From: Tricharina praecox
Taxonomy: Eukaryota
Length of the DNA: 64,000 nt
NCBI RefSeq assembly: GCF_024521635.1
Contig: NW_026250423.1
Location: 62,001-126,000, forward strand
Direction: 5' to 3'
Shown: positions 11,207 to 64,000 of the stretch, one piece after another
Numbering within the stretch: the first letter of the stretch is position 1
Layout of the letters: each line of letters opens with the position of its first letter
Translations under genes and position numbers: made by a program
The notes under the pieces: generated by a model
Database searches by the model: none
What the model saw: only the letters and a program-made list of their open reading frames with translations
Told to the model about the DNA's origin: nothing

Positions 11207-13113
11207 CTAGTCGGAAAAGTCACCATCTTTGTCCTTATCCTCTTTGGGGTATTCCAGGCGCATGAAGAAGCTACACAGGACACCCTATAGAATAATCAGC
11301 ATTTTTCCGGCCAGAATAATGAAGAAGGGAAAATCGCACAGTAACACTGTCGATGAAGATCAGACCATCATCGAACTGGTGCACCTTGGCTTCCACATGC
11401 ATGCCCGGGAAGCAGTACTGCAGGCAGATCTTCTCGAGCCAGATGATGATTTCAAGTCCACGCAGACGGTCCTCGACATTCAACTGATCCTCCTTGAATG
11501 GTTCTTCCGCGACCCAGGGCGTAACCTTGAGGTAGCCGAGAGCCTGCGTGTTGCGGAAGTACTTGTTGTCCGGCAAGGCCATGTCGGCGTTCTCTGGAAG
11601 CGGCGGGCTAGGACCGGGCATGACCACCTCCAGAACCTCAAGTGAAAGGAAGTGCTTAAATTCGGTTAGCTTGCGATCGAGGCCCCTTGCGATCTGTTCC
11701 GGTGTTCCACGTCTGTTGAGGCCGACAAGAATTAATTCCTTGGCCATCTTCGGGTCCAGTCCAGCCATGAGGGAGCGGTCTGTGTCGTCCCACGTCGCTT
11801 CAGGGTCGAAAATACCAGCATAGGATCCGCCATAGATGGTGGAGCAGGCCATGTTCCATGAGCCCGGCAGAAGGTTTGACACGTGTATGCAGAGAACCAA
11901 CTCCTTTTCGGCAAGGTTGCAGAGTTCGATTGCTTCTTTGATATTGTCGATATACTCCGGACAAACGTTGTGGTAAATAACCTGCATTTGATTCCAGTAA
12001 ATAATAGTTACTGGAATCGGTGTAGGAAACACTTACGTAGTTGAGGAAGTTCCTTACGACCTGGCAAGCCATTTCCAACTCAGGGACCTTTCTGATCCCC
12101 AAGCCGTACGGGACCTTGTAGGACAAGAATCCACGGACAACAAATGCGAAGTCCACATCGTACTCCTGGGCATCGTCGCCTCCGTTGTCGTTGAAAGTGA
12201 TGAAATCCGTAGCCGCGAGCAGTCCGATCTGTTCGGCATCCAAATCATCCATCTTCTTCGGGTCGATGCCACCGGAATACTGCTTCTGGCCGGTTTGCAC
12301 ACCTCCCAGCCTCAGGTAGGAATTGAAGATGTTGATACGAAATGCATCAAACTTGCGTCTGGCCTTGTATCTCTGGATGCATGTCTCCATACGTCTACCC
12401 ACCGATTAGCACATCTCCTCTACGAACCGCGATCTCGAGCACTCACTGAGCAAACGGCTTAGAACTTGAAGATCCGACATATTAGTTACGACCGAGCACA
12501 ACGCTTACAGCGGTGATTGCGCACTGAGAACTCACAGAGCGTAGAGAGCTTCTTCAATGTCGGCCTCGGCTTTGGTAAGAGGCCCATCAACCACGTATTC
12601 TGCGCCAAACATTAGCCGCCGTATACCCTTGGTATCGCCACTGTCATTCGCTACCTTCGAATCCAGATGGTTTCGTCTAAAACATTGCCAGCCGCCGCCA
12701 CCGTCAGCACAACCATCCATTCCATTAATGATCAGAAATGCGCTCAAAAGCGCGCACTAGGCGGCTGCGAAGCATGTCGCCCAATCACCACGATGATAAA
12801 CACGGAGGTTAAATAAACAAACCTTGGATTTTCCGGTCGTTCCGCTCTTGGCCGTAGCGGGAGCAGGGCCGTTCCCCCCCTTCTTCTTCTTTCCCTTGCG
12901 CTTCGGCGCGGCGTCTGTCTCGGCTGCGATGTTCACGCCATTTCCAGCAGCTTCGAGATCAGCGGCGACGGCATCAGCAGCAGGAGCGGCAGCAGCAGCA
13001 GTCTCGAGCTTAGTCGATGTTGGTGAAACATCCTTGCTAGCGAGTTCCGGCTCCTCTAGTTTCGCAACCATGGAGGGAGCTGGAGGGCGGATGGGGAGAG
13101 TAATGGTAGGCAT
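11207..13113 (-). CDS. arb1: Argonaute siRNA chaperone (ARC) complex subunit Arb1-like protein; exons 13113-12823, 12676-12655, 12599-12536, 12464-12447, 12394-12037, 11981-11340, 11284-11207
   Basis: Spliced motifs KPSGFEEYVVDGPLT..E...E..LY, PFAQRMETCIQRYKARRKFD, FNSYLRLGGV, VDFAFVVRGFLS, VVRNFLNYVIYHNVCPEY, WNMACS and YCFPGMHVEA are typical of fungal Arb1. Phases are consistent across all introns. Confidence 0.85.
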
Positions 13114-23490: not shown

Positions 23491-24439
23491 ATGTCTCCCG
23501 TACGTTGTCTCCCGTCCATCACCGCCACAAGTTACCCCTTAATCCTCGCTTGTGGCGACCATCGCTATTGCACGTTCTCGCGGGTGCTGATTCCATTCGT
23601 TACAGGCACAGTTTCTGCGCGAATACAAATTGGTCGTGGTAGGAGGAGGAGGCGTCGGCAAATCGTGTTTAACGATCCAGCTCATCCAGAGTCACTTTGT
23701 GGACGAGTATGACCCTACAATTGAAGGTACACGATAGCTCCACAACCCTTCCCTCCGCTGTCGCCGGACTCGGTGCTAACACACGCCACCACCACCAGAC
23801 TCGTACCGCAAGCAGTGCGTGATTGACGATGAAGTCGCACTTCTCGACGTGTTGGATACCGCAGGCCAGGAAGAGTACTCTGCGATGCGGGAGCAGTACA
23901 TGCGCACGGGAGAAGGCTTCCTCTTGGTCTACTCCATCACCAGCCGGACGAGTTTCATCGAGATTGCCACATTCCAACAACAGATTCTGCGAGTGAAGGA
24001 CAAGGATTACTTCCCGGTGATTGTCGTGGGAAACAAGTGCGATCTGGACATGGATCGGGCTGTCAGTCAGCAAGGTATGTTGTGGACATTGGCGCCACCG
24101 TGGGACCTCGTGCCCGCCGCCGCCCATGTGCCTTACCGTTCTCACCGTCCTCGATGCTGATGTTTTTTCTTTCTCTCAGAGGGCCGTGACTTGGCCGCCC
24201 ACTTCTCGTGCCGGTTCATCGAAACCTCGGCGAAAGCTAGAATCAATGTTGACGAGGCCTTCTACAACTTGGTCCGTGAGATCCGTCGGTACAACAAAGA
24301 CCAGGCCGGAGGTTCGGCCTCGCCGGGTGGAGGTCCCGGTACCCAAAGCGGTGGCAACGGTGGAGCCGGCGGTGGCCCAGGATACAACAAGGAACAAGAC
24401 AACAACGCAGGCTGCTGCGGCAGTTGCGTCATCTTGTAA
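23491..24439 (+). CDS. ras1: Ras small GTPase (RasA/Ras1 type); exons 23491-23499, 23606-23726, 23799-24074, 24180-24439
   Basis: [56 protein letters not shown] and ETSAK. C-terminal GCCGSCVIL has palmitoylation cysteines and a CaaX box. Confidence 0.98.
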
Positions 24440-25162
24440 GGTGGTGGCGGCGACGACGATGAGGCGAGTCGAAAAGGAACTTTCAATAAACGATACGACA
24501 CGACACGTCCCCGGGCGGCACCATCAATCGGTTGTACCGCTGGCGCAAAAAACCCCCTTCCTTTTTTCTTTTCCTTACTATTCTCATCTCCATTTCCTCT
24601 CGTCGATTCGTGTTTCCTCTTGTTCTGTTTCTTTTTTTTTTTGCGCCGGTGACGGATAGACGGATTGGCTGGTTAATTTGGGGATAGGATTACGCCTGGT
24701 TTAGTTGTCATTGCAGATGTTGTCTGATCCCACCCCGAGCCAGGCAATAATCATACCTACGCTTTTAGTCGGGTGCTTTACTTCTGGCTCGCAGCCAATT
24801 CTGTTCTCGTGTCTTTTTTTTTTGCTCATAGTTGTTTTTTTTTCCTTTCTTCTTTCTCTTCCTCTTCATTTTCTCGGGGATTTTGTTCTGCGTGATAGGC
24901 GCTGGGCTTTTCGATGAGATATATCAGTAGTAGTAGTAGTAGCATTGCATGGGGTTTTCGTTATTTCCGTCTGTCTGTCTGTCTGTCTGCTTCGTGGTGG
25001 GGATGGGGGGTGGGGGTTGGGGGGGGGCCTCTTTTGATTGATGATGGTTTTGTTTCGATCGACTCTTCTCCTCTGCCTCTGCGTGTGTGTCTCTTGCTCT
25101 CTTGCTCTCCAACTAGCTTTCAATCCTTTGATTTGCGCTTTTCATATCTTGGTTTTTTGTGT

Positions 25163-25980: not shown

Positions 25981-26580
25981 TCATCCACCCATACATCGGT
26001 GTCACTCGCTTGCTGGTTTCCTACCTATTCACGCGTTTGTTTCTCTCATGTTCTGGTCATATGTACTATTTGCTCTCTCATTTCTGTACGATTGAGGAAC
26101 TGCTGTCTTGGTACCTGTAAAAGGGCTTGATCCTGCCATCCTAGCTGGACGACATCTTAGACACCTTGGGTATTCGGTTGAATGTTATCACGCATATCCA
26201 CCACCAAAACTTCAACAGTCGTTGATTGTCTCCTGTTTGTCCAATCTAATTCATCCTTCACGGATACCTATCACTCGTTTGCTGGTTTCCAGGAATTGTC
26301 ACGCGCTTGTTTCACTGTTTGTTCCACTGTTTGTCATGTGTCATGTGTTTGTTTCTTCTTATCATACGGCTGACTTGTGGATTGCTCATATATCTCATGT
26401 TCTGACGACTAGGTATCTGCTCGCTTTTCTGTACGATTGGGGATCTACTGTCTTCCAATGATACCTGTGAAAGGGTCTGGTCCTGTCCGTCCACCTACTA
26501 TAGCTAGACGGCATCTTAGACATCTTAGATATTCGGTTGAATATTGTCACGCATATCCACCACCAAAACGTCAACAGTCG
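25981..26580. repeat. Diverged direct duplication (about 25981-26221 vs about 26251-26580)
   Basis: Shared blocks include TCACTCG.TTGCTGGTTTCC, TTTCTGTACGATTG and CATCTTAGACA.CTT.G.TATTCGGTTGAAT.TT.TCACGCATATCCACCACCAAAAC.TCAACAGTCG. Confidence 0.9.
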
Positions 26581-26782
26581 TCCATAGATACAGCATACGG
26601 CTGTGACCGCTGGGGACTGATATCGGCGGGAACAGAGCGCGCGTACTATGCGCGGAGGATGAGGATGGGGATGAGGAGGAAGGTGCAGGTCGCTGTGGAT
26701 GCCCTACAGCGAGGTTAGAGATCGGAGATCGGTACCGCCGAGTGAGCTGTAGTTAGAGTATCCATATGACTTTTTGTTTCCG

Positions 26783-27050
26783 TAGTACTGGCCGCAGGTG
26801 TAAATACCGGTAGGTAGATACTCGCGAGTGCCTGCTGGCTGCTGGGGGTTGCGGGTTACGGCGACTGCGTGGTTATTCCCGAATCCCGAGGTCGCTGGGG
26901 GTTTTTTTTTGTATGTATGTACTTTTTGTTCCCCTAGTACTGACCGCAGGTGTGAATGCTTGTACTCGCGAGTGCCTGCAGGCTGCTGGGGGTTGCGGCG
27001 ACTGGATGGTTATTCCCCGAATCCTGAGGTCGATGGGGGGTTTTCTTTGT
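26783..27050. repeat. Diverged tandem duplication of about 120-130 bp (26783-26911 vs 26935-27050)
   Basis: Both copies contain TAGTACTG.CCGCAGGTGT...TACTCGCGAGTGCCTGC.GGCTGCTGGGGGTTGCGG...GGTTATTCCC.GAATCC.GAGGTCG.TGGGGG followed by a T-tract. Confidence 0.92.
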
Positions 27051-28682: not shown

Positions 28683-29370
28683 TTACTCAATGGTTCCACC
28701 ATTAACGTCGAGAACCTTGGGGATCAAAACATTCAACCCAACAGGTACCGTAAGCGTAATCTTGGGCAGATGCTTGGGGAGGCGGCAAGGCTTGTCTCCC
28801 GCGAGGTGGAAGCGGGCACCCTCAAAATCACCCTTGGCAGACAAAGCCACGAAGGCATGAGGCTTCATGGTGTAAAAAAAGGTGCTCTCTTTCATTGGAG
28901 GCTTCTTTTCGGCTTTCTTGGGGGTGACCTAAAGGATGTTGGCTGAGTGCATCTTAAATGTGAAAGAGGGCTTACCCGTCGTCCGGCCATCATGATCGCA
29001 ACCATCTCGGCTGTCAAGATACCTTTGCCACCGACCGTCGGCTTAGACTTCTCAACCTGGGACGGGATGTTAGGGGCTGGCTGGATGGATGGATAGGAAG
29101 GGGACTTACCTCGCTCTCAGAATGAGGGGCTGGGGAAACAGGGGCGACTGGGGAGACTGGGGAGTCCGGGGCGACGGGGGTGGCGGCAGCGGGAGCGGAA
29201 GCCATGGCAACCTTGCGGGCCGACCTGCGGATGGGAATAACCTTGCGTCTGGTGGTCTTCTTGGTAGCATTGTCATCCTCGGTGTCCTCGGAAGCATCAG
29301 ACTTGGGATCAGCAGCAGACGCCCCCTTGGCCCTGCTGCGAGCGCTGATGCGGGTGGACTTGCGAGCCAT
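28683..29370 (-). CDS. Hypothetical protein, divergent member of the EGARF family; exons 29370-29110, 29056-28976, 28928-28683 (a further GTAAGT donor at 28686 overlaps the stop)
   Basis: Canonical GT-AG phase-0 introns join a basic, S/P-rich N-terminus (MARKSTRISARSRAK...) to FFYTMKPHAFVALSAKGDFEGARFHLAGDKPCRLPKHLPKITLTVPVGLNV. A 5'-UTR intron ends CTAG-AGAA-ATG. Confidence 0.75.
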
Positions 29371-32300
29371 TTCTCTAGATCCCCAGATCAGTATGTACGG
29401 ACGGGGAGATATGATAGTTGGAATTTCTACTTACTTCTTGTCGTGGGAGGTTAGTTGTCTTGACAACTTTTCGTGGGGATCGCGATGTGAGACTTCTCTG
29501 GATCAGATGGATGGTGTAGTAGAAGAGAAGGAAGAAAATCTCAGGAGCTTTCCGAGGGGTTTTGTTGACGGCACACGGTCACGAGCGTCTTTGTGGCGCG
29601 AGTAGGGCTTCACGACACGCAACCCGCAATGGCGAAGCCCTAACGTCCTCACGCTTGCCTCGAAAACGGAATTGGGGTATCATGAGAGATGACTCGGTTT
29701 TTAATGCACAGAAATCACTCGCTCTCCCTCCATAGTAAATCCTAGGGGATGAGGATACACGGTAATAGTTCCTTGGGGCCGAAGCGGAAGATGGGGGAGA
29801 GAGGCGAGGTGGCAGCAGGAGGAACGCGCATGTAGGCCCATACCGGTCTTTACTGCCAATTCACTTTTTGCTTGTGTCGGCCCGAGGCGGATAGGCAGGG
29901 GAAGTGGGGAGCCGCATCGGACTGGTCGGTACCGGGGCTTTCACGTCAACTGGCCAGGGCGGGCAGGAAAAGGATTTCGTTGGTTCGCCATAGTCTAGAT
30001 AGGCTGCATGCAAAATAAAACAGGAAGATCTCTCTCCGTAGGAGATCCAAATGATTATTGTGTGCATCACTATTCCGCAGCGGCTGCCTGCGTTTAACCA
30101 AGAACCAATTCAAACATCTACAGGATTATCTTTTGGAATCACGTATGGGTACAAACTTCTTTCCGAAGGCGGGATGGGTTTTAACTTCTGGTCCTCAGAA
30201 GGTCTCACAGCCGATCACCTCTTCTCAGTAAGCCACGAAGCTCTACTCTACGGGGGCTTTGCCGTCCGCCCATCCGCATCGGCATCCGCAGCGACCGCAC
30301 AGCTACAGATGGGCACAACTGGTTTCGGTACGTAGTGCTCTCCATCACAGGCTCTCGGCGTTTACAATACTGTACATGCAAGAGCACAAGGCGCTGCCAC
30401 TGGTAGCCAGCATCGGCTACATGACGGTATTGCACTGCTGTTGATCCTCAGCGAATGTCACGAACGAAGCTCGAACAGCATCCCTCCAAGTGTTACTGTG
30501 TTCCGGATCGACCATGATGCAATGGTGCAGCAGCACAGGGTGTATGAAGGTATGTGCGCAATGGCCAGGCCCACCTCTTTCGGATGGACTGCACTGCATC
30601 GAATTTATTCCGCCCCCCTCCCCCTCACGTACTCGATATGCGATCGATACCTAGACAGTTCAGCCATGCACTCGCCCTCGCCCTCACGAAGTCTCACTCG
30701 CGCGACCTCCCTCTTCACACATTCCAACACTCACACACACATGCGCGCACACACCCACATTCCCCGCACGGAAACAAGCGACCATGGAGCGAGTCACCCG
30801 CGGCCAATCGCTTTCCCCGCGCATGATGGTATACATACATACAACTCTAAACGGCGGATCCAGAGCCTCGGAGCCACACACACGCACACGACGCGACGAT
30901 CACCGCCTCAGCCACGGCGCCGGAGTCTCGTCCGATTCGATAATTACGTGTGTACTTACATACATACCTGGTAGGTACGCCGGCTAGAACCCGTCTCGAC
31001 TCCCGCCAGTTTCGTTTCTTTTCGTCCAGCGCACGTATGATAGGCTCGGAGGAGGAGGAGGAGGAGAAGGAGGAGGGTGCCGCCCCCGCTCCCGTTGGTT
31101 GTGCCCGCTCCCGTTGTGCCCAAAACAAAAACTGAAGGAGAGGTCTCAGGCCCGTCGTGCCACCGTCACATGCAGTACTCTGCTGCGCGAGCGCGTAGAC
31201 ACTCACCCACTCACCCACTCACCCACCAGATTGCGCGCGGGAAAATTTCCGGAGCCAATGAGTGCCTGTGCCTGTGCATGGCGTCGTTCCGTGGTACATA
31301 CCGTACGTAGGTATGTATGTAGGACGCCCGGCCTGAAGAACAGGAATTGAATTATTGGCAGGAGGAGCTCAAGAGATGTTGGGTAGGCACTGGGCACTGC
31401 ACTGCAGTGCAGTGCAGTGCAAATCGGATTCAATCCCCCACACCATTGTCGCTTGGCTGACCTGGTGAGTGGATGAATGAAAGCCTACTGTACTCTGTTG
31501 GAGTGGATGTTGGGCATGATGTTGGGGCAAACGGCATGTGTGTGGTTGAGGTGGTTGTCGAGGTGGTGGTATAGGTGGTGGTGGGGTCTACCTATGCGAG
31601 ATAACCCTTCGAGCCGACAAACCCCAATTGCGCCGGTAGAACCAAGCCGGAGGATGGAGTACCGGTATCCAGAACGGCCGAGCCTGGGGAGAAAAAGAAA
31701 AGAAAAAGTCTGATGTCCCATCGCTACTCTAGAGTACTCTATGTAGCCGTCAGCTGGGGGAGGAGGAGGAGGATCTACAGAGCGCGAGTGATAGTTGTGA
31801 TCCGCAGAGTGCAGCTTGCGCGGTTGGCCACTCCCCCAACCCACCAACCACCATCCGCCACTCCCCACTACGCACATAAATTTCTCGGCGCGAATCCAAT
31901 CCACCGTTACGATTGGGCTGGGCTGAAAGGGGGTGGTGGTGGTACTGGTGGGGGTGGTGGTGGTGGTGGTGGTGGTGAAGGTGAAGGTGGAGGTGGGTGC
32001 GCAATCAATCTATCTCCTCCAATATATCAAATCAAATCAATCAATCAGGTCAAAACAAAAAACAAAAACAAAACAAAAACAAAAACAAAAACAAAAGAAA
32101 ACCAGCCAGAGGCAGACAGGCAGGCTGGACTCATGATCAACCGTCGCTCCACTGCCACACACCCAAAAAGCAGAGTGCCCTCCCCCCAAAAGGTGGGTGG
32201 TGGCGATGATGGCAAGTGCTGCATTCATCGGGGTCCTGCAGCTGAGCAGTGTTTCAAACCCCCCTCCCCTCTAGATAAGTAGGTAAATACCCACCCATCC

Positions 32301-42300: not shown

Positions 42301-42855
42301 AAGGACCTCCATCCCGACCGACGACCTTCTCCGTTCTTTTCCAAACCATCCCACAAGAGTAGAGCAACCGCACGGAAAAGAAACACAACCTCAAAGCTAA
42401 ACGAACGTAGCATGGAACAAGTAATAAGCATCATGAATAATAAAACGAAAAAACGAAAAACTGAATAAAGAAATCCACGTGGAACGACAACGCCGGGATG
42501 CACGCCCATTGGATCCATCGAATTGGTTGGTAACCGTGGCTGGAGTCGCGACAGATCGACATGATAACATAACTGCCTCTGTCACAAACTCGGCCAACGG
42601 CTTCCTTCGATGAACCATCCGTGACTTTGAAGCCCCCCGCCTCCGTCCCATTCCACACACCCTCCTTCACCTTCCCATTCCCCTTCTCCTCCTCCCCGCA
42701 AGGTATATCCCCCGCTAAACCCCCCGAAAAAGAACGAAGCCTTACAAAATTATGCCAACGCAAAACACAATCATCATCGCACACGCAAACAAAAGGAAAC
42801 GCCACTCGCCAACCAATTCGGAATTCATGACTACTTCGACCGTCGCGGGGGTATA

Positions 42856-44099
42856 TTAGGCGGCGGACAACGAGGTCTGTTTCAGACGATCGTTGAGGCG
42901 TTGCACTTCGGAGTCGGTCGGCTTGTACTTGGGCTTCTTGGGACTGTAGCTTGCGTCAGTAAATTGTAGGATAACCTTGCAAATATAAAGGAAACTTACG
43001 GGTCTCTAACACCCGTGTCATCCCGATTGGAGCCACATCCACCACAAAGCTTCGTCTTTTCTATGAAAGTAGCCTGGCAGTTGTTGCAAGTCCAGTGCAC
43101 ACGGCGACGGGGCTTCTTGTAGGTCCGGCGTGGCGGGGCGGGATAATCCGGCTCCGAATCGGTAGGGTCGTTCTTTCCGTAGTCCTTTCCACCCTTGGGA
43201 GATCTGTTGAAAGAAAATAATATTAGACACTGGCTGGTATTGACAGGAGTAAATGGAGGGAATGCATACGGATGACGAGGACACTTCTTGCAACGGTTGT
43301 GCTTGCACTTGCCGCAGACCTTCTCGGAAGCGAAGTCGGTATCGCAACGATGGCACTTGCGATGGACGCGTTGACGAACTTCCTTGCGGACCAGATCCTG
43401 TCCGCCCCTCCTGCCCGGGATGGTGATACCATAGGCGATGTCACCCTTGCGCTTCTTATAGCCAGGGGCGATGCCAGTCTTGGTAGTGACCTTCTCCTTG
43501 CCCTTGTCCTTCGACTTCTTGAGCGGGTGTCGGGGGCACTTCTTGCACCGCTTGTGACCGCACTCGAGGCAGGTCTTGTCGGCACCGTAGGGCGTCTCGC
43601 ACTTGTGGCAGCTGCGATGGACGCGCATGCGGATGTCCTTCTGGACACGGTCCGACTGGGGCGTCGTGGAAAGGGGCAAGTCAGTCGACTTGACGTCGAG
43701 GCCGTGCTTCTTGAACAGGGCCTGAGCACGCTCAGCGGCGCTCATGACGGGAGGAGGGGAGGTGGGGTTCTTGGGAGGGCGGTAAGGCTTGTGGGCGGGC
43801 TTGTGGGCGGGCTTCTCGGTGAGCCTGGTGGGAGCGGGGCTGTGAAGAGCTGTTAGCGAAGTGTTCATCCCATCTCGTGTCTCAACATACGTAGACGCCA
43901 ACACAACGGGAGCAGCAGTAGTGGCAGTAACAGCAGCGGAAGAAGACGCAACAATCGGAGACTGCGGCTCGGAGGCGATCATGGAACCCGAGGACTTATT
44001 GGACTTCGAGGAGGTGTAGCTCATGACACGCTTGATGGAGGTGGTCAGACGTCTACGAATAGACGTCGACTTTTCGGATCTCCCTTCATCTCCAGCCAT
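42856..44099 (-). CDS. Conserved-looking fungal hypothetical protein with three Cys/His zinc-ribbon-like repeats; exons 44099-43891, 43839-43270, 43203-43000, 42943-42856
   Basis: Repeats RVHRSCHKC..C..CGHKRCKKCPRHP, RVHRKCHRC..C..CKHNRCKKCPRHP and RVHWTCNNC..C..CGSNR. It has canonical introns and strong codon bias, and ends ...EVQRLNDRLKQTSLSAA*. Confidence 0.88.
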
Positions 44100-45109
44100 T
44101 TTTGGTGAAGCCTTTGATTGTTTGGTGGACGGAACCGAGACTCGAAGGATGGGATTCGTTGGCTATGCGAGCTACAAGTGGTGGGGGGTGGAGGGTTTAT
44201 GTATTGGATGGGCGGAGCGATTGAATGCTGGCAGTCGAGCGAGCAATTGGGGGGGGGGGGGGGTGTGGGAGAGTGAGTGTGGTCCAACGATAGTAGGCGA
44301 GGTGCTATGGGGTAGTAGTGGTAGTTTGTTGTTGTTGTTGTCGGGACAGAAAGTTTGGCGCGTACCAGGGAGCGGGTAGCTAGTAGGTGGTGGTAATGGA
44401 GGGATGAACCAGTGAACTTGTCTCCTTCACTTTTATTCACTCGTCGGGGTGTAATTGACGAGATGTTGCTGAGGTGTGCGGGGGGAACTCAGGTTGCGGG
44501 TGGGGAGAAGGAAGGGACAAGAAATAGAGGGCGGATCTGGGGTTTTGTTGTTATGGGCGAACCGTAGAGCAATCCATTGTGCTGGGATGGGGGGATGGGG
44601 GGGTGTGTGTTTTTTTTTGGGGTCGGGGGGGGGGTGTGGGTGGGTCGTGTGGGAGGGAGGATGGGGAAGGCGGGTGTGTATGGGATAGGTATGGTACGGG
44701 CTGGTCCGGGGGGGGGGGGGGGGAGTGAGTGGTGTGTGTGGGCCAGCCAGCAGCAACCAAGCAAAGCAGAGCAAGCAGAGCAAGCAAAGCAGAGCAAAGC
44801 AGAGCAGAGCAGGCAAAGCAAAGCGACGCACACCAAGAGAGAGAGAGAGTGCACACACACCACGCTATCACGTTTGGAATTTGGACTGGCCGATACGGTG
44901 GGCAGCCAAACTAACAGGCCCGGCCAGCATGGTACTCGCGACAAGGGGCATTCTACGCAGATGTGCGACGGTTACGGAGAGCGGGATGGCGGGACTCGAG
45001 GCAATGGGGAATTGGCTCCAGCAACACGCCTGCGACTTGCATTGGAGAAAGAAGGACGAGCCAGCCAACCCATTGCGGTGAGGACTGCAAGCGAGGCGGC
45101 CGGAGACGA

Positions 45110-58734: not shown

Positions 58735-59337
58735 ATTTCCGGACAGCGATACAACCTGCGCAAGCGCGCCGCGAAGCCCGCAGCCACCGTCAATACTCCC
58801 GGCCGCAAGGCCAACAAGGTAAGCACAAGCCCACCCGCACTCCCACCCAATGCACGACATCTGACACCGCTCTGACAGAACCCCAAGTCCGCCAGCGGCG
58901 GCATCTCCAAGGCCGCGCGGGCGCCGAAGACATACGTCTACTGCATAAAGCCCAGCAGCATGGCTCGGCTCGCCGAATTGGAGTTCGGCGAGCACACCAC
59001 GCTCGTGGAGGGCGCGCGTTTCTACCTCCTGCCTGGAGGAAAGAAGCGCGCCCCGAGCGGCGTGGTGTCCATGAGGGTCACCGTGCCCGCTGGAGTTGAC
59101 GCCAAGTGGCTGGTGGAAATGGACTTGGAGGAGGAGTTCTTGGGGGAGGCGGATGAGCAGGTGATGGAGGAGGAGCGCCAGGCGGCGGCGGCGGAGCACG
59201 AGCAGGAGGAGAAGCTGGAACAGCAGATCCAGCAACAGCTGGAAAATGAACAGCTGGGGGAAGAGGAGCAAGCAGAAGTGGATAAAGAGGAGGAGGCGGC
59301 TGGCAACACCAGCCGCCGGAGTTGCATCGTAATGTAG
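58735..59337 (+). CDS. EGARF-family copy A; exons 58735-58818, 58879-59337; ATT in place of the paralogues' ATG (or start at internal ATG 58960); acidic coiled-coil tail ending in CaaX CIVM
   Basis: (I)SGQRYNLRKRAAKP..GRKANK/NPKSASGGISKAARAPKTYVYCIKPSSMARLAELEFGEHTTLVEGARFYLLPGGKKRAPSGVVSMRVTVPAGVDAKWLVEMDLEEEF...NTSRRSCIVM*. The phase-0 GTAAGC..CAG intron is at the same position as in copies B and C. Confidence 0.7.
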
Positions 59338-60399
59338 AAGACATTACTTTTTTTTCCATCTTCTTTCTTTTTTGCTTCCCGCGGCTAACCCCGACAGGGC
59401 TCCCTCATTCCCCGCTGCTGTCTACTGTCAGAGTAGAAGTGACAGACGCCGCTTCTCACGGCCATGGACTGCTCAGTGCATGCGGATGATGGGCGGCGAA
59501 GCAAGCAAGCGGGCAAAGCGCTCGCTTTTAATGATTGGGTAGTACTGACCGGCGGTGTGGAGGAGATGTTTACTCCGTGATGGTAGCCTCCTAGAACGTT
59601 CTGTGAAATCCGTGGGAAGATCTGATTAGAGGCCCTGACGGCGCTCGGTGAGGTTCAATAGCCTCCGCGAGGCTATTGCGTGGAATAGTGTTTTCTGAGG
59701 GATGACAATGTGCTTCAGGACGGCAGCTGTTACACTATGAAACGGCTCTCTACCACGACATGAACGAGGTATGGGGAACGAAAGCAAGATGATCGTCACG
59801 GCCGAGGCGCGAGCCTAAAATTATCTGTAGAAAAAGTGCTAAAGCCAAAACCCCGTGAAAACACACTAGCAAGCTTCGAAGCTTGCACGATTCTAAGCTC
59901 ACACCACCTATAAAACCACCCCTTCCCTCCTTCCATCTCTCCTTTCCTTTTTCTTCTTCAAGCACAGGCATGAGCAAAGCACAACAGCAGTGGCAAGAGT
60001 AAAGAGCAAGCACAGCAGTGGCAAGAGCACAGCGGATTGATATAACGCCCCTTACGTGGTCGAGGTTTTTTTCCTACGGGTTTCCTCATAAAAAACATCA
60101 TCTTCCTGGCTGCAATGCGAGGGGGTGAGATTTTTTTCTGGCTCTTCTCGGTCTAGGGTGGTAGCGGAGAGGCTCGGAGATCACGGTTCGTCGCAGATCG
60201 GCACGGTGATTCATCAGCATCCGGCGACGGGTGTGTGGGATCGTTGCCCATTATCGAGACACGCAGCAGTTGATCCGAAAGACCATCGCCGCACCGGTGA
60301 AGACGCCAGACGATCAAAGTCTCCACCACCAGCAGCAGCACGGGAGCCTCCGGTGGAGCACAGGGACCAAGAGTGGCCTGGAGGCACGCCGGTGTGCAG

Positions 60400-61133: not shown

Positions 61134-61605
61134 ATGTCAAAACACTCCTACAACCTGCGCAAGCGGGCTCCAAAGCCCGCTACCGCCATTCCGCATGGCC
61201 GCAAAGCTCCCGAGGTAGTTTGGCCCAACCCACACTCCTATCCGGCCGCATCTGACATCGTGTCCACAGATCTCCAAGTGCCTACAGATCTCCAAGTGCG
61301 CACGCGCACCGAAGACACACGTCTACTGCCTAAAGCCCGGCAGCATGGCTCGGCCCGCCGAAATAAATTTCGGCGAGCACACCACGCTCGTGGAGGGTGC
61401 GCGCTTCTACCTCCAGCCTGGAGGCAGGAAGTGCGCCCCACGCGGCGTGGTGTCCATGGTGATCACCGTGCCAGCTGAAGTCGACCTCCAGTGGCCGGTA
61501 GTAATGGACTTGGGGGAGGAGATCTCGGGGAAGGCGGAGGCGGGCACCAGGTGGAAGACACAAGGGAACCGAGAATTGTATCATCCGGTTCGACTCAGAC
61601 CCTGA
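61134..61605 (+). CDS. EGARF-family copy B; exons 61134-61214, 61270-61605; C-terminal tail apparently frameshifted
   Basis: MSKHSYNLRKRAPKP..GRKAPE/ISKCLQISKCARAPKTHVYCLKPGSMARPAEINFGEHTTLVEGARFYLQPGGRKCAPRGVVSMVITVPAEVDLQWPVVMDLGEE... An acidic tail (FDSDPESESEEPLISDEARRAIEEV...) lies in another frame at about 61589-61746. Confidence 0.7.
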
Positions 61606-63685: not shown

Positions 63686-64000
63686 ATGTCCGGACACAAT
63701 CACAACCTGCAGAAGCGCGCCACCAAGGCCGCTACCACCGTCAAGCCTGCCCGCAACTCCCCCAAGGTGAGCATGACCCGCACTCCTATCGCACTGCATC
63801 TGACACGGCGCTCGTAGATCCCCAAGGCCGCGAGCGGCATTTCCAAGTCCGCCCGCGCCAAGAAGTACATATACGCCCTCAAGCCCACCACCATGGCTCG
63901 GCTCGCGGACATCGAGTTCGACGAGCACACCACGCTGGTGGAGGGTGCGCGTTTCTACCTCCAGCCTGGAGGTAGGAAGCGCGCCCCCAGCGGCGTGGTG
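63686..64000 (+). CDS. EGARF-family copy C (truncated by the window end); exons 63686-63766, 63818->64000
   Basis: MSGHNHNLQKRATKAATTVKPARNSPK/IPKAASGISKSARAKKYIYALKPTTMARLADIEFDEHTTLVEGARFYLQPGGRKRAPSGVV. The GTGAGC..TAG phase-0 intron is at the same position as in copies A and B. Confidence 0.8.

Follow-up and report, generated by a model that had tools for sequence, protein, structure and literature searches.

Gene D of Tricharina praecox, a probable diverged relative of a gene family in which most expanded copies carry a coding hairpin

Results

Gene D and its locus

The window (the whole stretch of DNA that we analysed, 64,000 nt in length) corresponds to positions 62001-126000 of contig C19 in an assembly of 38.4 Mb and 104 contigs. 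It contains a Ras gene at 23491-24440 on the plus strand, recognised by a Pfam Ras match and with introns shown by RNA, and, on the opposite strand and about 4 kb downstream of that gene, the gene that we call D. Gene D runs from an ATG at 29370 to a stop at 28683, and its three coding exons (29370-29110, 29056-28976 and 28928-28683), with predicted phase-0 introns of 53 and 47 nt between them, encode a product of 195 aa with a basic N-terminus and, for the whole protein, a pI of 10.15. Its features are the following:

29435..29504, minus strand: 5′-UTR exon (upper end approximate); one RNA contig joins 29435 to 29374
29375..29434, minus strand: 5′-UTR intron, 60 nt, GT..AG, from the sequence and skipped in one contig of RNA run X1
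29110..29370, minus strand: coding exon 1, 87 codons, an open frame from the ATG to a GTAAGT donor
29215..29229, minus strand: pentapeptide RRSAR at aa 48-52, the same as the nucleosome-binding core of HMGN
29057..29109, minus strand: predicted phase-0 intron, 53 nt, from splice signals; absent from copies A-C
28976..29056, minus strand: coding exon 2, 27 codons, with a homologous exon in L022 and no counterpart in copies A-C
28929..28975, minus strand: predicted phase-0 intron before the domain exon, 47 nt, from splice signals
28683..28928, minus strand: last exon, 81 codons, with the shared domain of about 60 aa
28444..28626, minus strand: probable 3′-UTR, matched by a contig of RNA run X2 over 183 letters with no difference, the contig itself being strandless

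The 3′ end of the 5′-UTR intron lies 4 nt before the ATG. Exon 1, which had no Pfam match, is basic and then rich in Ala, Pro and Ser, and on this composition it is probably disordered. The last exon is without hairpin, acidic tail or CaaX, and the stop follows directly after the domain.

A broken paralog on contig C39 (L022) matches D from the last part of exon 1 through intron 1 and exon 2 to the donor that follows, which supports these boundaries of the model. Intron 1 differs between the two at 4 of 53 nt, and in exon 2 there are silent differences at 5 of the 7 degenerate codons of identical residues. No domain exon was found within about 7 kb downstream of L022.

Expression of D

Four RNA runs were compared. 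In X1, the source of the 5′-UTR joint and a run that we only presume to be RNA, one contig with a depth of 2 skips exactly the 5′-UTR intron of D (the spliced Ras contig of the same run has a depth of 545), and exon 1 is partially covered at a depth below 2. The 5′-UTR intron is the only one of D with an RNA joint, the coding introns being outside the contig cover and the domain exon likewise having no joint. Nothing of D was found in runs X3 and X4, and bins of X1 and X2 with no cover are not to be read as absence. We consider D to be a real gene because its 5′-UTR intron is spliced in a low-depth RNA contig; it is intact and weakly transcribed. Since the protein collection, searched at lengths of 143-2000 aa, did not return D, its gene model is without an independent gene call.

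Copies A-C and the spread of their family

The other members of the family in the window are three copies close to its end:

58735..59337, plus strand: copy A, with exon 58735-58818, phase-0 intron 58819-58878 and domain exon 58879-59337
61134..61605, plus strand: copy B, with exon 61134-61214, intron 61215-61269 and domain exon from 61270
63686..64000, plus strand: copy C, with exon 63686-63766, intron 63767-63817 and domain exon from 63818

The domain exon of copy A ends in an acidic tail and a CaaX, and in this copy ATT replaces the ATG of B and C. Copy B lacks a CaaX, and its acidic tail is out of frame; in copy C the domain exon continues beyond the end of the window to an acidic tail and a CaaX. 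Copy A as a query gave 14 genome matches (5 on C19, 5 on C18, 2 on C8, 1 on C9 and 1 on C39), with D absent from them, and the D exon as a query matched only itself. The 20 kb that precede the window and the 29 kb beyond copy C contained no further copies. The preliminary description had seen two subclusters bracketing a gene desert. In fact, D is a single gene and the family is dispersed over C8, C9, C18, C19 and C39, and the supposed desert holds a four-exon gene with repeated CxxC pairs at about 42.8-44.1 kb.

A CaaX is in frame at 3 of the 14 loci (A, C and L017) and lies behind a stop or out of frame at 3 more. Stops, frameshifts, deletions and a lost ATG are scattered over many copies, and the dN/dS of 0.6-0.7 (45 non-independent pairs) corresponds to weak protein constraint. 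The introns of the family differ mutually by 0.23-0.27, and the shared non-coding blocks that flank A, B and C are consistent with tandem duplication.

In protein searches, copies A and B matched proteins annotated as hypothetical in the pezizomycete Tricharina praecox, and no homologs of the family were found in other named species. Five of the 16 matches of one of these searches (P0009, P0010, P0014, P0015 and P0016) were long repeat proteins, which we excluded as summed weak repeats after the sequences of two of them had been inspected. With a wider profile, 8000 candidates were scored, and the only ones returned were 7 proteins of T. praecox.

Likeness of D to the family

The last exon of D had been aligned by eye with copy A, and this alignment is borne out. 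Precisely, we built an HMM from 10 of the 14 family matches, leaving out D and the four matches whose domain has a stop, a deletion or a frameshift. It scored the last exon of D at 16.4 bits (E=4.4e-4), rank 4 of the 1472 ORFs of the window behind A, B and C. The ORF ranked next had 7.8 bits, and 10,000 shuffles gave 11.8 bits at most. The profile-profile comparison that had been proposed as a check, the D exon against the family of copies A-C, was also significant (hhalign probability 94%, E=1.3e-7, 62 columns, 29% identity). Pairwise identity of D to family members is 18-32%, and the BLAST E value is 3e-4 in a 64-kb database. As a score, 16.4 bits is modest, and too weak for a large database.

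Counted from the phase-0 intron, the conserved Tyr occupies codon 19 in D, B, C and L010 and codon 16-24 across 9 intact family members, the intron of D being a predicted one. From this Tyr to the EGARF block D is shorter by 6 residues (17 versus 23), and it is there that the outer 5′ arm of the hairpin sits in the copies.

The shared architecture that had been claimed holds in part: the position of the 5′-UTR intron, which fits the family pattern of ending 0-4 nt before the start codon, the basic N-terminus and the phase-0 intron are common to D and the copies, no likeness above chance was found for the sequence of the intron or for exon 1, and D has an additional exon. DNA profiles of the family promoter/5′-UTR and of the 5′-UTR intron gave no match at D up to E=50. 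Against a profile of 9 family exon-1 peptides (one of which, from L015, is mis-cut into its intron), 980 of 5000 shuffles were as good as exon 1 of D, and no YNLRKR-type motif, as in the A-type first exon of 27-29 codons, was found in D.

The common start of the 5′-UTR intron, GTAAGTAGA, had also been offered as evidence of kinship, and we set it aside: it is weak evidence because it consists of the donor consensus plus three bases and the donors of the family vary. D and B are two of the 3 GTAAGT sites, out of 35 in 114 kb, that continue with AGA.

From the likeness of the domain and the position of the intron we consider it very probable that D is homologous to the A/B/C family. By domain and intron position it is a member of the wider family, and it stands outside the expanded branch, since the hairpin, the acidic tail/CaaX and the YNLRKR-type first exon are all missing from it.

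Depth of the split

Between D and the 10 family members, identity at codon positions 1, 2 and 3 was 0.35-0.47, 0.46-0.57 and 0.28-0.35, respectively, values obtained from a protein-based alignment, which favours positions 1-2. The sole DNA-level match was a patch of 23 nt with E=0.78 (DNA profile). With third positions at background and both promoter and 5′-UTR intron lacking a match, the split is a deep one, and the claim that D is not a recent segmental duplication is upheld. We place the split long before the expansion because the third positions of D agree with the family at 0.28-0.35 while the introns of the family differ only by 0.23-0.27. The further claim that the family is old stands in relative terms, as a deep split, and not as a date: there is no named homolog outside T. 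praecox, constraint is weak, and in the tree D is unplaced on a long branch (about 2 changes per site) with the root unresolved.

D is more distant from the family than are two metagenome proteins with no organism given, P0012 and P0017, which would fit an early split of D; BLASTP of P0012 against D gave no alignment. No ortholog of D was found among 58 candidate proteins of 143-2000 aa or among 591 pattern matches in metagenome contigs, and in the search for DNA surrounding P0012 and P0017 none of 195 matches was confirmed.

The coding hairpin of the copies

Conservation within the family is highest in an inverted repeat of 73 nt that lies inside the reading frame:

58995..59067, plus strand: inverted repeat of copy A, 73 nt, in the coding domain; -54.2 kcal/mol over 84 nt, z -6.5
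61380..61452, plus strand: coding inverted repeat of copy B; z -6.7
63928..64000, plus strand: coding inverted repeat of copy C, the most perfect one, found as a blastn self-match; -66.2 kcal/mol, z -9.9

A consensus structure was computed for it, and a long stable stem, imperfect (28 pairs with bulges), is predicted in A-C and none in D. Against dinucleotide shuffles, z was between -3.6 and -9.9 in 10 of the 11 foldable copies, -1.0 in L015 and +1.0 in D. When codons were replaced by random synonymous ones in 300 trials per sequence, the real energy was reached once or never in 9 of the 10 testable copies, 11 times in L015 and 155 times in D. Of the 3044 windows of 84 nt that were scanned, the 4 most stable are all family hairpins.

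Inside the hairpin dS was 0.21 and dN 0.15, outside it 0.55 and 0.33, with dN/dS at 0.6-0.7 throughout; as both rates are about halved and their ratio is unchanged, the constraint of the hairpin acts on nucleotides. The paired state is found in 95% of 308 pair cells. Covariation was not above shuffles, a double change being present in 1 of 28 pairs and 485 of 500 shuffles being equal (11 close sequences), and Rfam gave no match in the window. Many copies, L013 and L016 among them, have a broken frame and an intact stem. In L020 the entire hairpin is gone, removed by a deletion of 93 nt that is bounded by 7-nt repeats and is of the kind expected if replication slips past a folded stem, and the lesions of the broken copies L018 and L020 fall in the Tyr-EGARF segment.

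D was also considered as a target of small RNAs from the family hairpins and was rejected as such: for the 6 copies tested the best ungapped antisense match was 13-14 of 21 nt, and the duplex of the D patch with the arms of C, A and B ranks 39th, 234th and 324th, respectively, of 10,662 stretches of the window.

Domain structure and short motifs

The domain of D and of the family had no significant Pfam match and no PDB sequence match. The AlphaFold2 model of D (pLDDT 71, pTM 0.56) has the order strand-helix-strand-strand-strand, and the model of copy C is poor (pLDDT 54). Fold searches with the D model, one of moderate confidence, gave no fold match (best Z 2.0, best E 1.5), and the ESM Atlas returned no match at >=0.9 and no structure row at TM 0.5. 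The lack of a fold match does not make the fold new.

The pattern RRS[AS]R, picked after it had been seen, arises in 0.4% of 20,000 shuffles of D exon 1, and the codon of its first Arg is changed in L022. A Tyr and an Arg of the YNLR type, likewise spotted after the fact, are found at 9 of the 14 family loci. In disordered regions of basic composition, short motifs rich in Arg occur frequently.

Discussion

Origin of D and alternative explanations

Our preferred reading, which we hold to be probable on balance, is that D is a deeply diverged paralog in a lineage-restricted birth-and-death family; its function is a separate and more doubtful matter. The ancestral gene would have had a 5′-UTR intron, a basic N-terminal exon, a phase-0 intron and an alpha/beta domain of about 60 aa, and would have been duplicated long ago. 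One lineage would have led to D, with its additional exon, and to the broken relative on C39, and the other would have expanded, through tandem as well as dispersed duplications, to 14 copies or more. The hairpin and the acidic tail, with the CaaX in part of the copies, may have been gained in the expanded lineage or lost in D, and template switching between the arms at replication would keep the arms alike. Such template switching, with no function involved, would be the simplest cause of the repeat and of the similarity of its arms. Because D keeps the domain with no hairpin, the conserved residues of the domain are independent of the palindrome.

Chance or convergence on short motifs might be suspected behind the likeness itself, given an identity of 18-32%, a BLAST E that is no lower than 3e-4 although the database has only 64 kb, no similarity at the DNA level and an exon 1 with no match. 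We regard it as very improbable, since none of 10,000 shuffles reached the HMM score, the match covers 62 columns, and intron phase and Tyr distance agree independently. It is also unlikely, although clearly less so, that D is an ordinary copy which evolved at a very high rate after losing hairpin, tail and CaaX. Its long terminal branch and the unresolved root would allow this, as would the weak constraint of the family and the 6 residues missing at the outer 5′ arm, the very segment in which L018 and L020 have their lesions; however, fast protein evolution would leave third positions, promoter and introns in place, and these align within the family and not to D, and the additional exon is common to a separate, silently diverged paralog (L022). 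Least probable of all, in our judgement, is that the family is the cargo or remnant of a mobile element with the hairpin as a signal for its spread: the dispersal over five contigs and the non-coding blocks common to the surroundings of A, B and C speak for it, but the blocks fit tandem duplication, and retroposition is excluded because the copies keep introns and promoters.

A different question is what is selected in the expanded copies. There may be doubt that they make a folded, selected protein, because of the dN/dS of 0.6-0.7 and the poor model of copy C, and it could be that selection acts on the hairpin as RNA, either as a structural signal or as a substrate of Dicer, while the frames decay, with D as the protein-coding relative in which the hairpin-free state is seen. 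The halving of dS and dN in the hairpin, the pairing in 95% of the pair cells and the stems of the broken-frame copies L013 and L016 agree with this. Nevertheless, covariation is no better than in shuffles, Rfam has no match in the window, D is no special target of the arms, and homogenisation of the arms at the DNA level would yield the identical pattern with no RNA function, so that we consider a selected RNA unlikely, about as much as a fast-evolving ordinary copy. Our preferred reading remains the early split of D followed by expansion of the other lineage.

Possible function

The most likely mode of action of D, put forward tentatively, is that of a small chromatin-binding nuclear protein. 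D might dock on the H2A-H2B acidic patch of the nucleosome through the arginine anchor of RRSAR and so bring its domain to chromatin, the expanded copies might dock through their YNLR(K)R motif, and those with a CaaX might in addition be farnesylated and membrane-bound. The RRSAR core is that of HMGN nucleosome binding, with close variants in Dsup and yeast Dot5, as described in the relevant passages of PMC12487698 and PMC13347269. D carries RRSAR exactly, all three arginines included, and, as in the fungal Dot5 portrayed there, in a basic and probably disordered region; it is unlike HMGN, Dsup and Dot5 in that KVA follows the core instead of LSA, LTS or IAT (a Lys where HMGN and Dot5 have Leu or Ile) and in that there is no homology elsewhere. 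For the family, 9 of the 14 loci have a Tyr and an Arg spaced as Tyr537 and the anchor Arg540 in the chromatin-binding sequence of the prototype foamy virus Gag, whose role at the acidic patch is described in PMC12125541; that motif is absent from D, the likeness of the family extends over 4-6 residues, and there is no sign of a viral origin.

According to the passages of PMC2947476 on Kugelkern and lamins, in animal cells a basic signal together with a CaaX is sufficient for an effect on the nuclear membrane. A, C and L017 resemble these proteins in having a basic NLS-like segment and a C-terminal CaaX, but the family has no homology to them and D is without CaaX, and both localisation and prenylation of the copies are putative.

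We mention, as an improbable extension, that the branch, after the split from D, could have acquired the palindrome in its coding core and become dual-purpose, the palindrome giving a hairpin RNA for the fungal small-RNA pathway and the product being a Kugelkern-like protein, anchored by arginine at one end and by farnesyl at the other, that ties nucleosomes to the nuclear membrane. Lamins are not known from fungi. If the reading of chromatin plus membrane held, it would point to a species-level invention in nuclear organisation, and if the dual-purpose reading were true, the condition that preceded the hairpin would survive in D, through which the origin of the hairpin could be dated and tested.

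Comparison with known systems and meaning of D

For Pyronema confluens, 5,737 orphan genes were reported, with multi-copy families left out of the orphan analysis, in the passages on orphan genes of PMC3778014. D and its family are like the Pezizomycete orphan families described in that text in having short proteins, low expression and no homolog in other named fungi, and unlike them, as far as that description goes, in the coding hairpin. Orphan genes abound in the Pezizomycetes, where diverged paralogs of such families are nothing unusual, and D as such means little, beyond adding a small domain for which the libraries that were searched gave no match.

For yeast, PMC8604942 documents that template switching occurs in coding DNA. 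As in the coding palindromes and the template-switch homogenisation of PMC6649704 and PMC8604942, to the extent that these are described there, both arms of the family repeat encode conserved residues; unlike those palindromes, the repeat of the family is nuclear, imperfect and confined to one orphan branch.

What deserves to be followed up is the hairpin in the coding sequence of the copies, for which D serves as the control. D is in fact a natural control, having kept the domain with no hairpin, and together with the copies it makes a pair for studying how coding inverted repeats arise and persist.

Genes in the window

Two further minus-strand genes lie in the window:
11271-12405, minus strand: gene encoding Arb1, a subunit of the Argonaute chaperone (Pfam PF09692)
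~42820-44100, minus strand: gene of four exons whose paired CxxC motifs fall into three blocks

The Arb1 gene probably bears no relation to the hairpins, that is, the 73-nt coding inverted repeats of the family copies. The four-exon gene, which is flanked on both sides by gene-poor stretches of ~13-14 kb, matched nothing in Pfam; to judge by its CxxC motifs, its product is probably zinc-binding.

Repeats around D

Repeats were found on both sides of D, the deeply diverged minus-strand paralog of the A/B/C family:
26044-26581 and 26765-27050: degenerate direct repeats in two pairs, lying in the stretch that separates D from the Ras gene
29743-30036: interspersed repeat of ~295 bp, ~370 bp upstream of the ATG of D

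The direct repeats are 135-190 bp long with 78-79% identity, and the cover of the sequencing run X1 (presumed RNA) is low over both pairs; over the ~295-bp repeat it is high. In the 40 places scored out of 245 candidates for the latter, identity was 84-94% and one end was missing in many copies. This repeat, which had no match in Rfam, ends in a (CT)n tail and shows apparent target-site duplications; with the shortened copies, these features make it SINE-like. A 53-bp piece of it is inserted directly at the start codon of the family copy L016 (L016:1262-1312).

Family copies and relatives of D

At the start position there is ATT in copy A (58735-58737) and ATG in copies B and C; the public protein model P0001 instead takes in an upstream segment. 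A fourth, truncated unit, consisting of the promoter and start region without the domain, lies ~0.7-1.5 kb beyond the window end (L002:1667-2500). Within the window, the family promoter profile matches 59877-59959 weakly (E=0.22), and a short unrelated frame comes after the match.

The N-terminal residues of D are MARKST (29353-29370), which we take to resemble the K9 context of histone H3; by this analogy, D could possibly be a histone mimic.

One D-type relative was found on another contig:
L022:1501-1715 (G000:C39:510017-510231), minus strand: broken D-type paralog

Compared with D, it differs at 4 of 53 sites in intron 1 and at 27 of 79 sites in exon 2 (Fisher P=3e-4). The closer likeness of the intron may reflect either gene conversion in the recent past or constraint on the intron itself.
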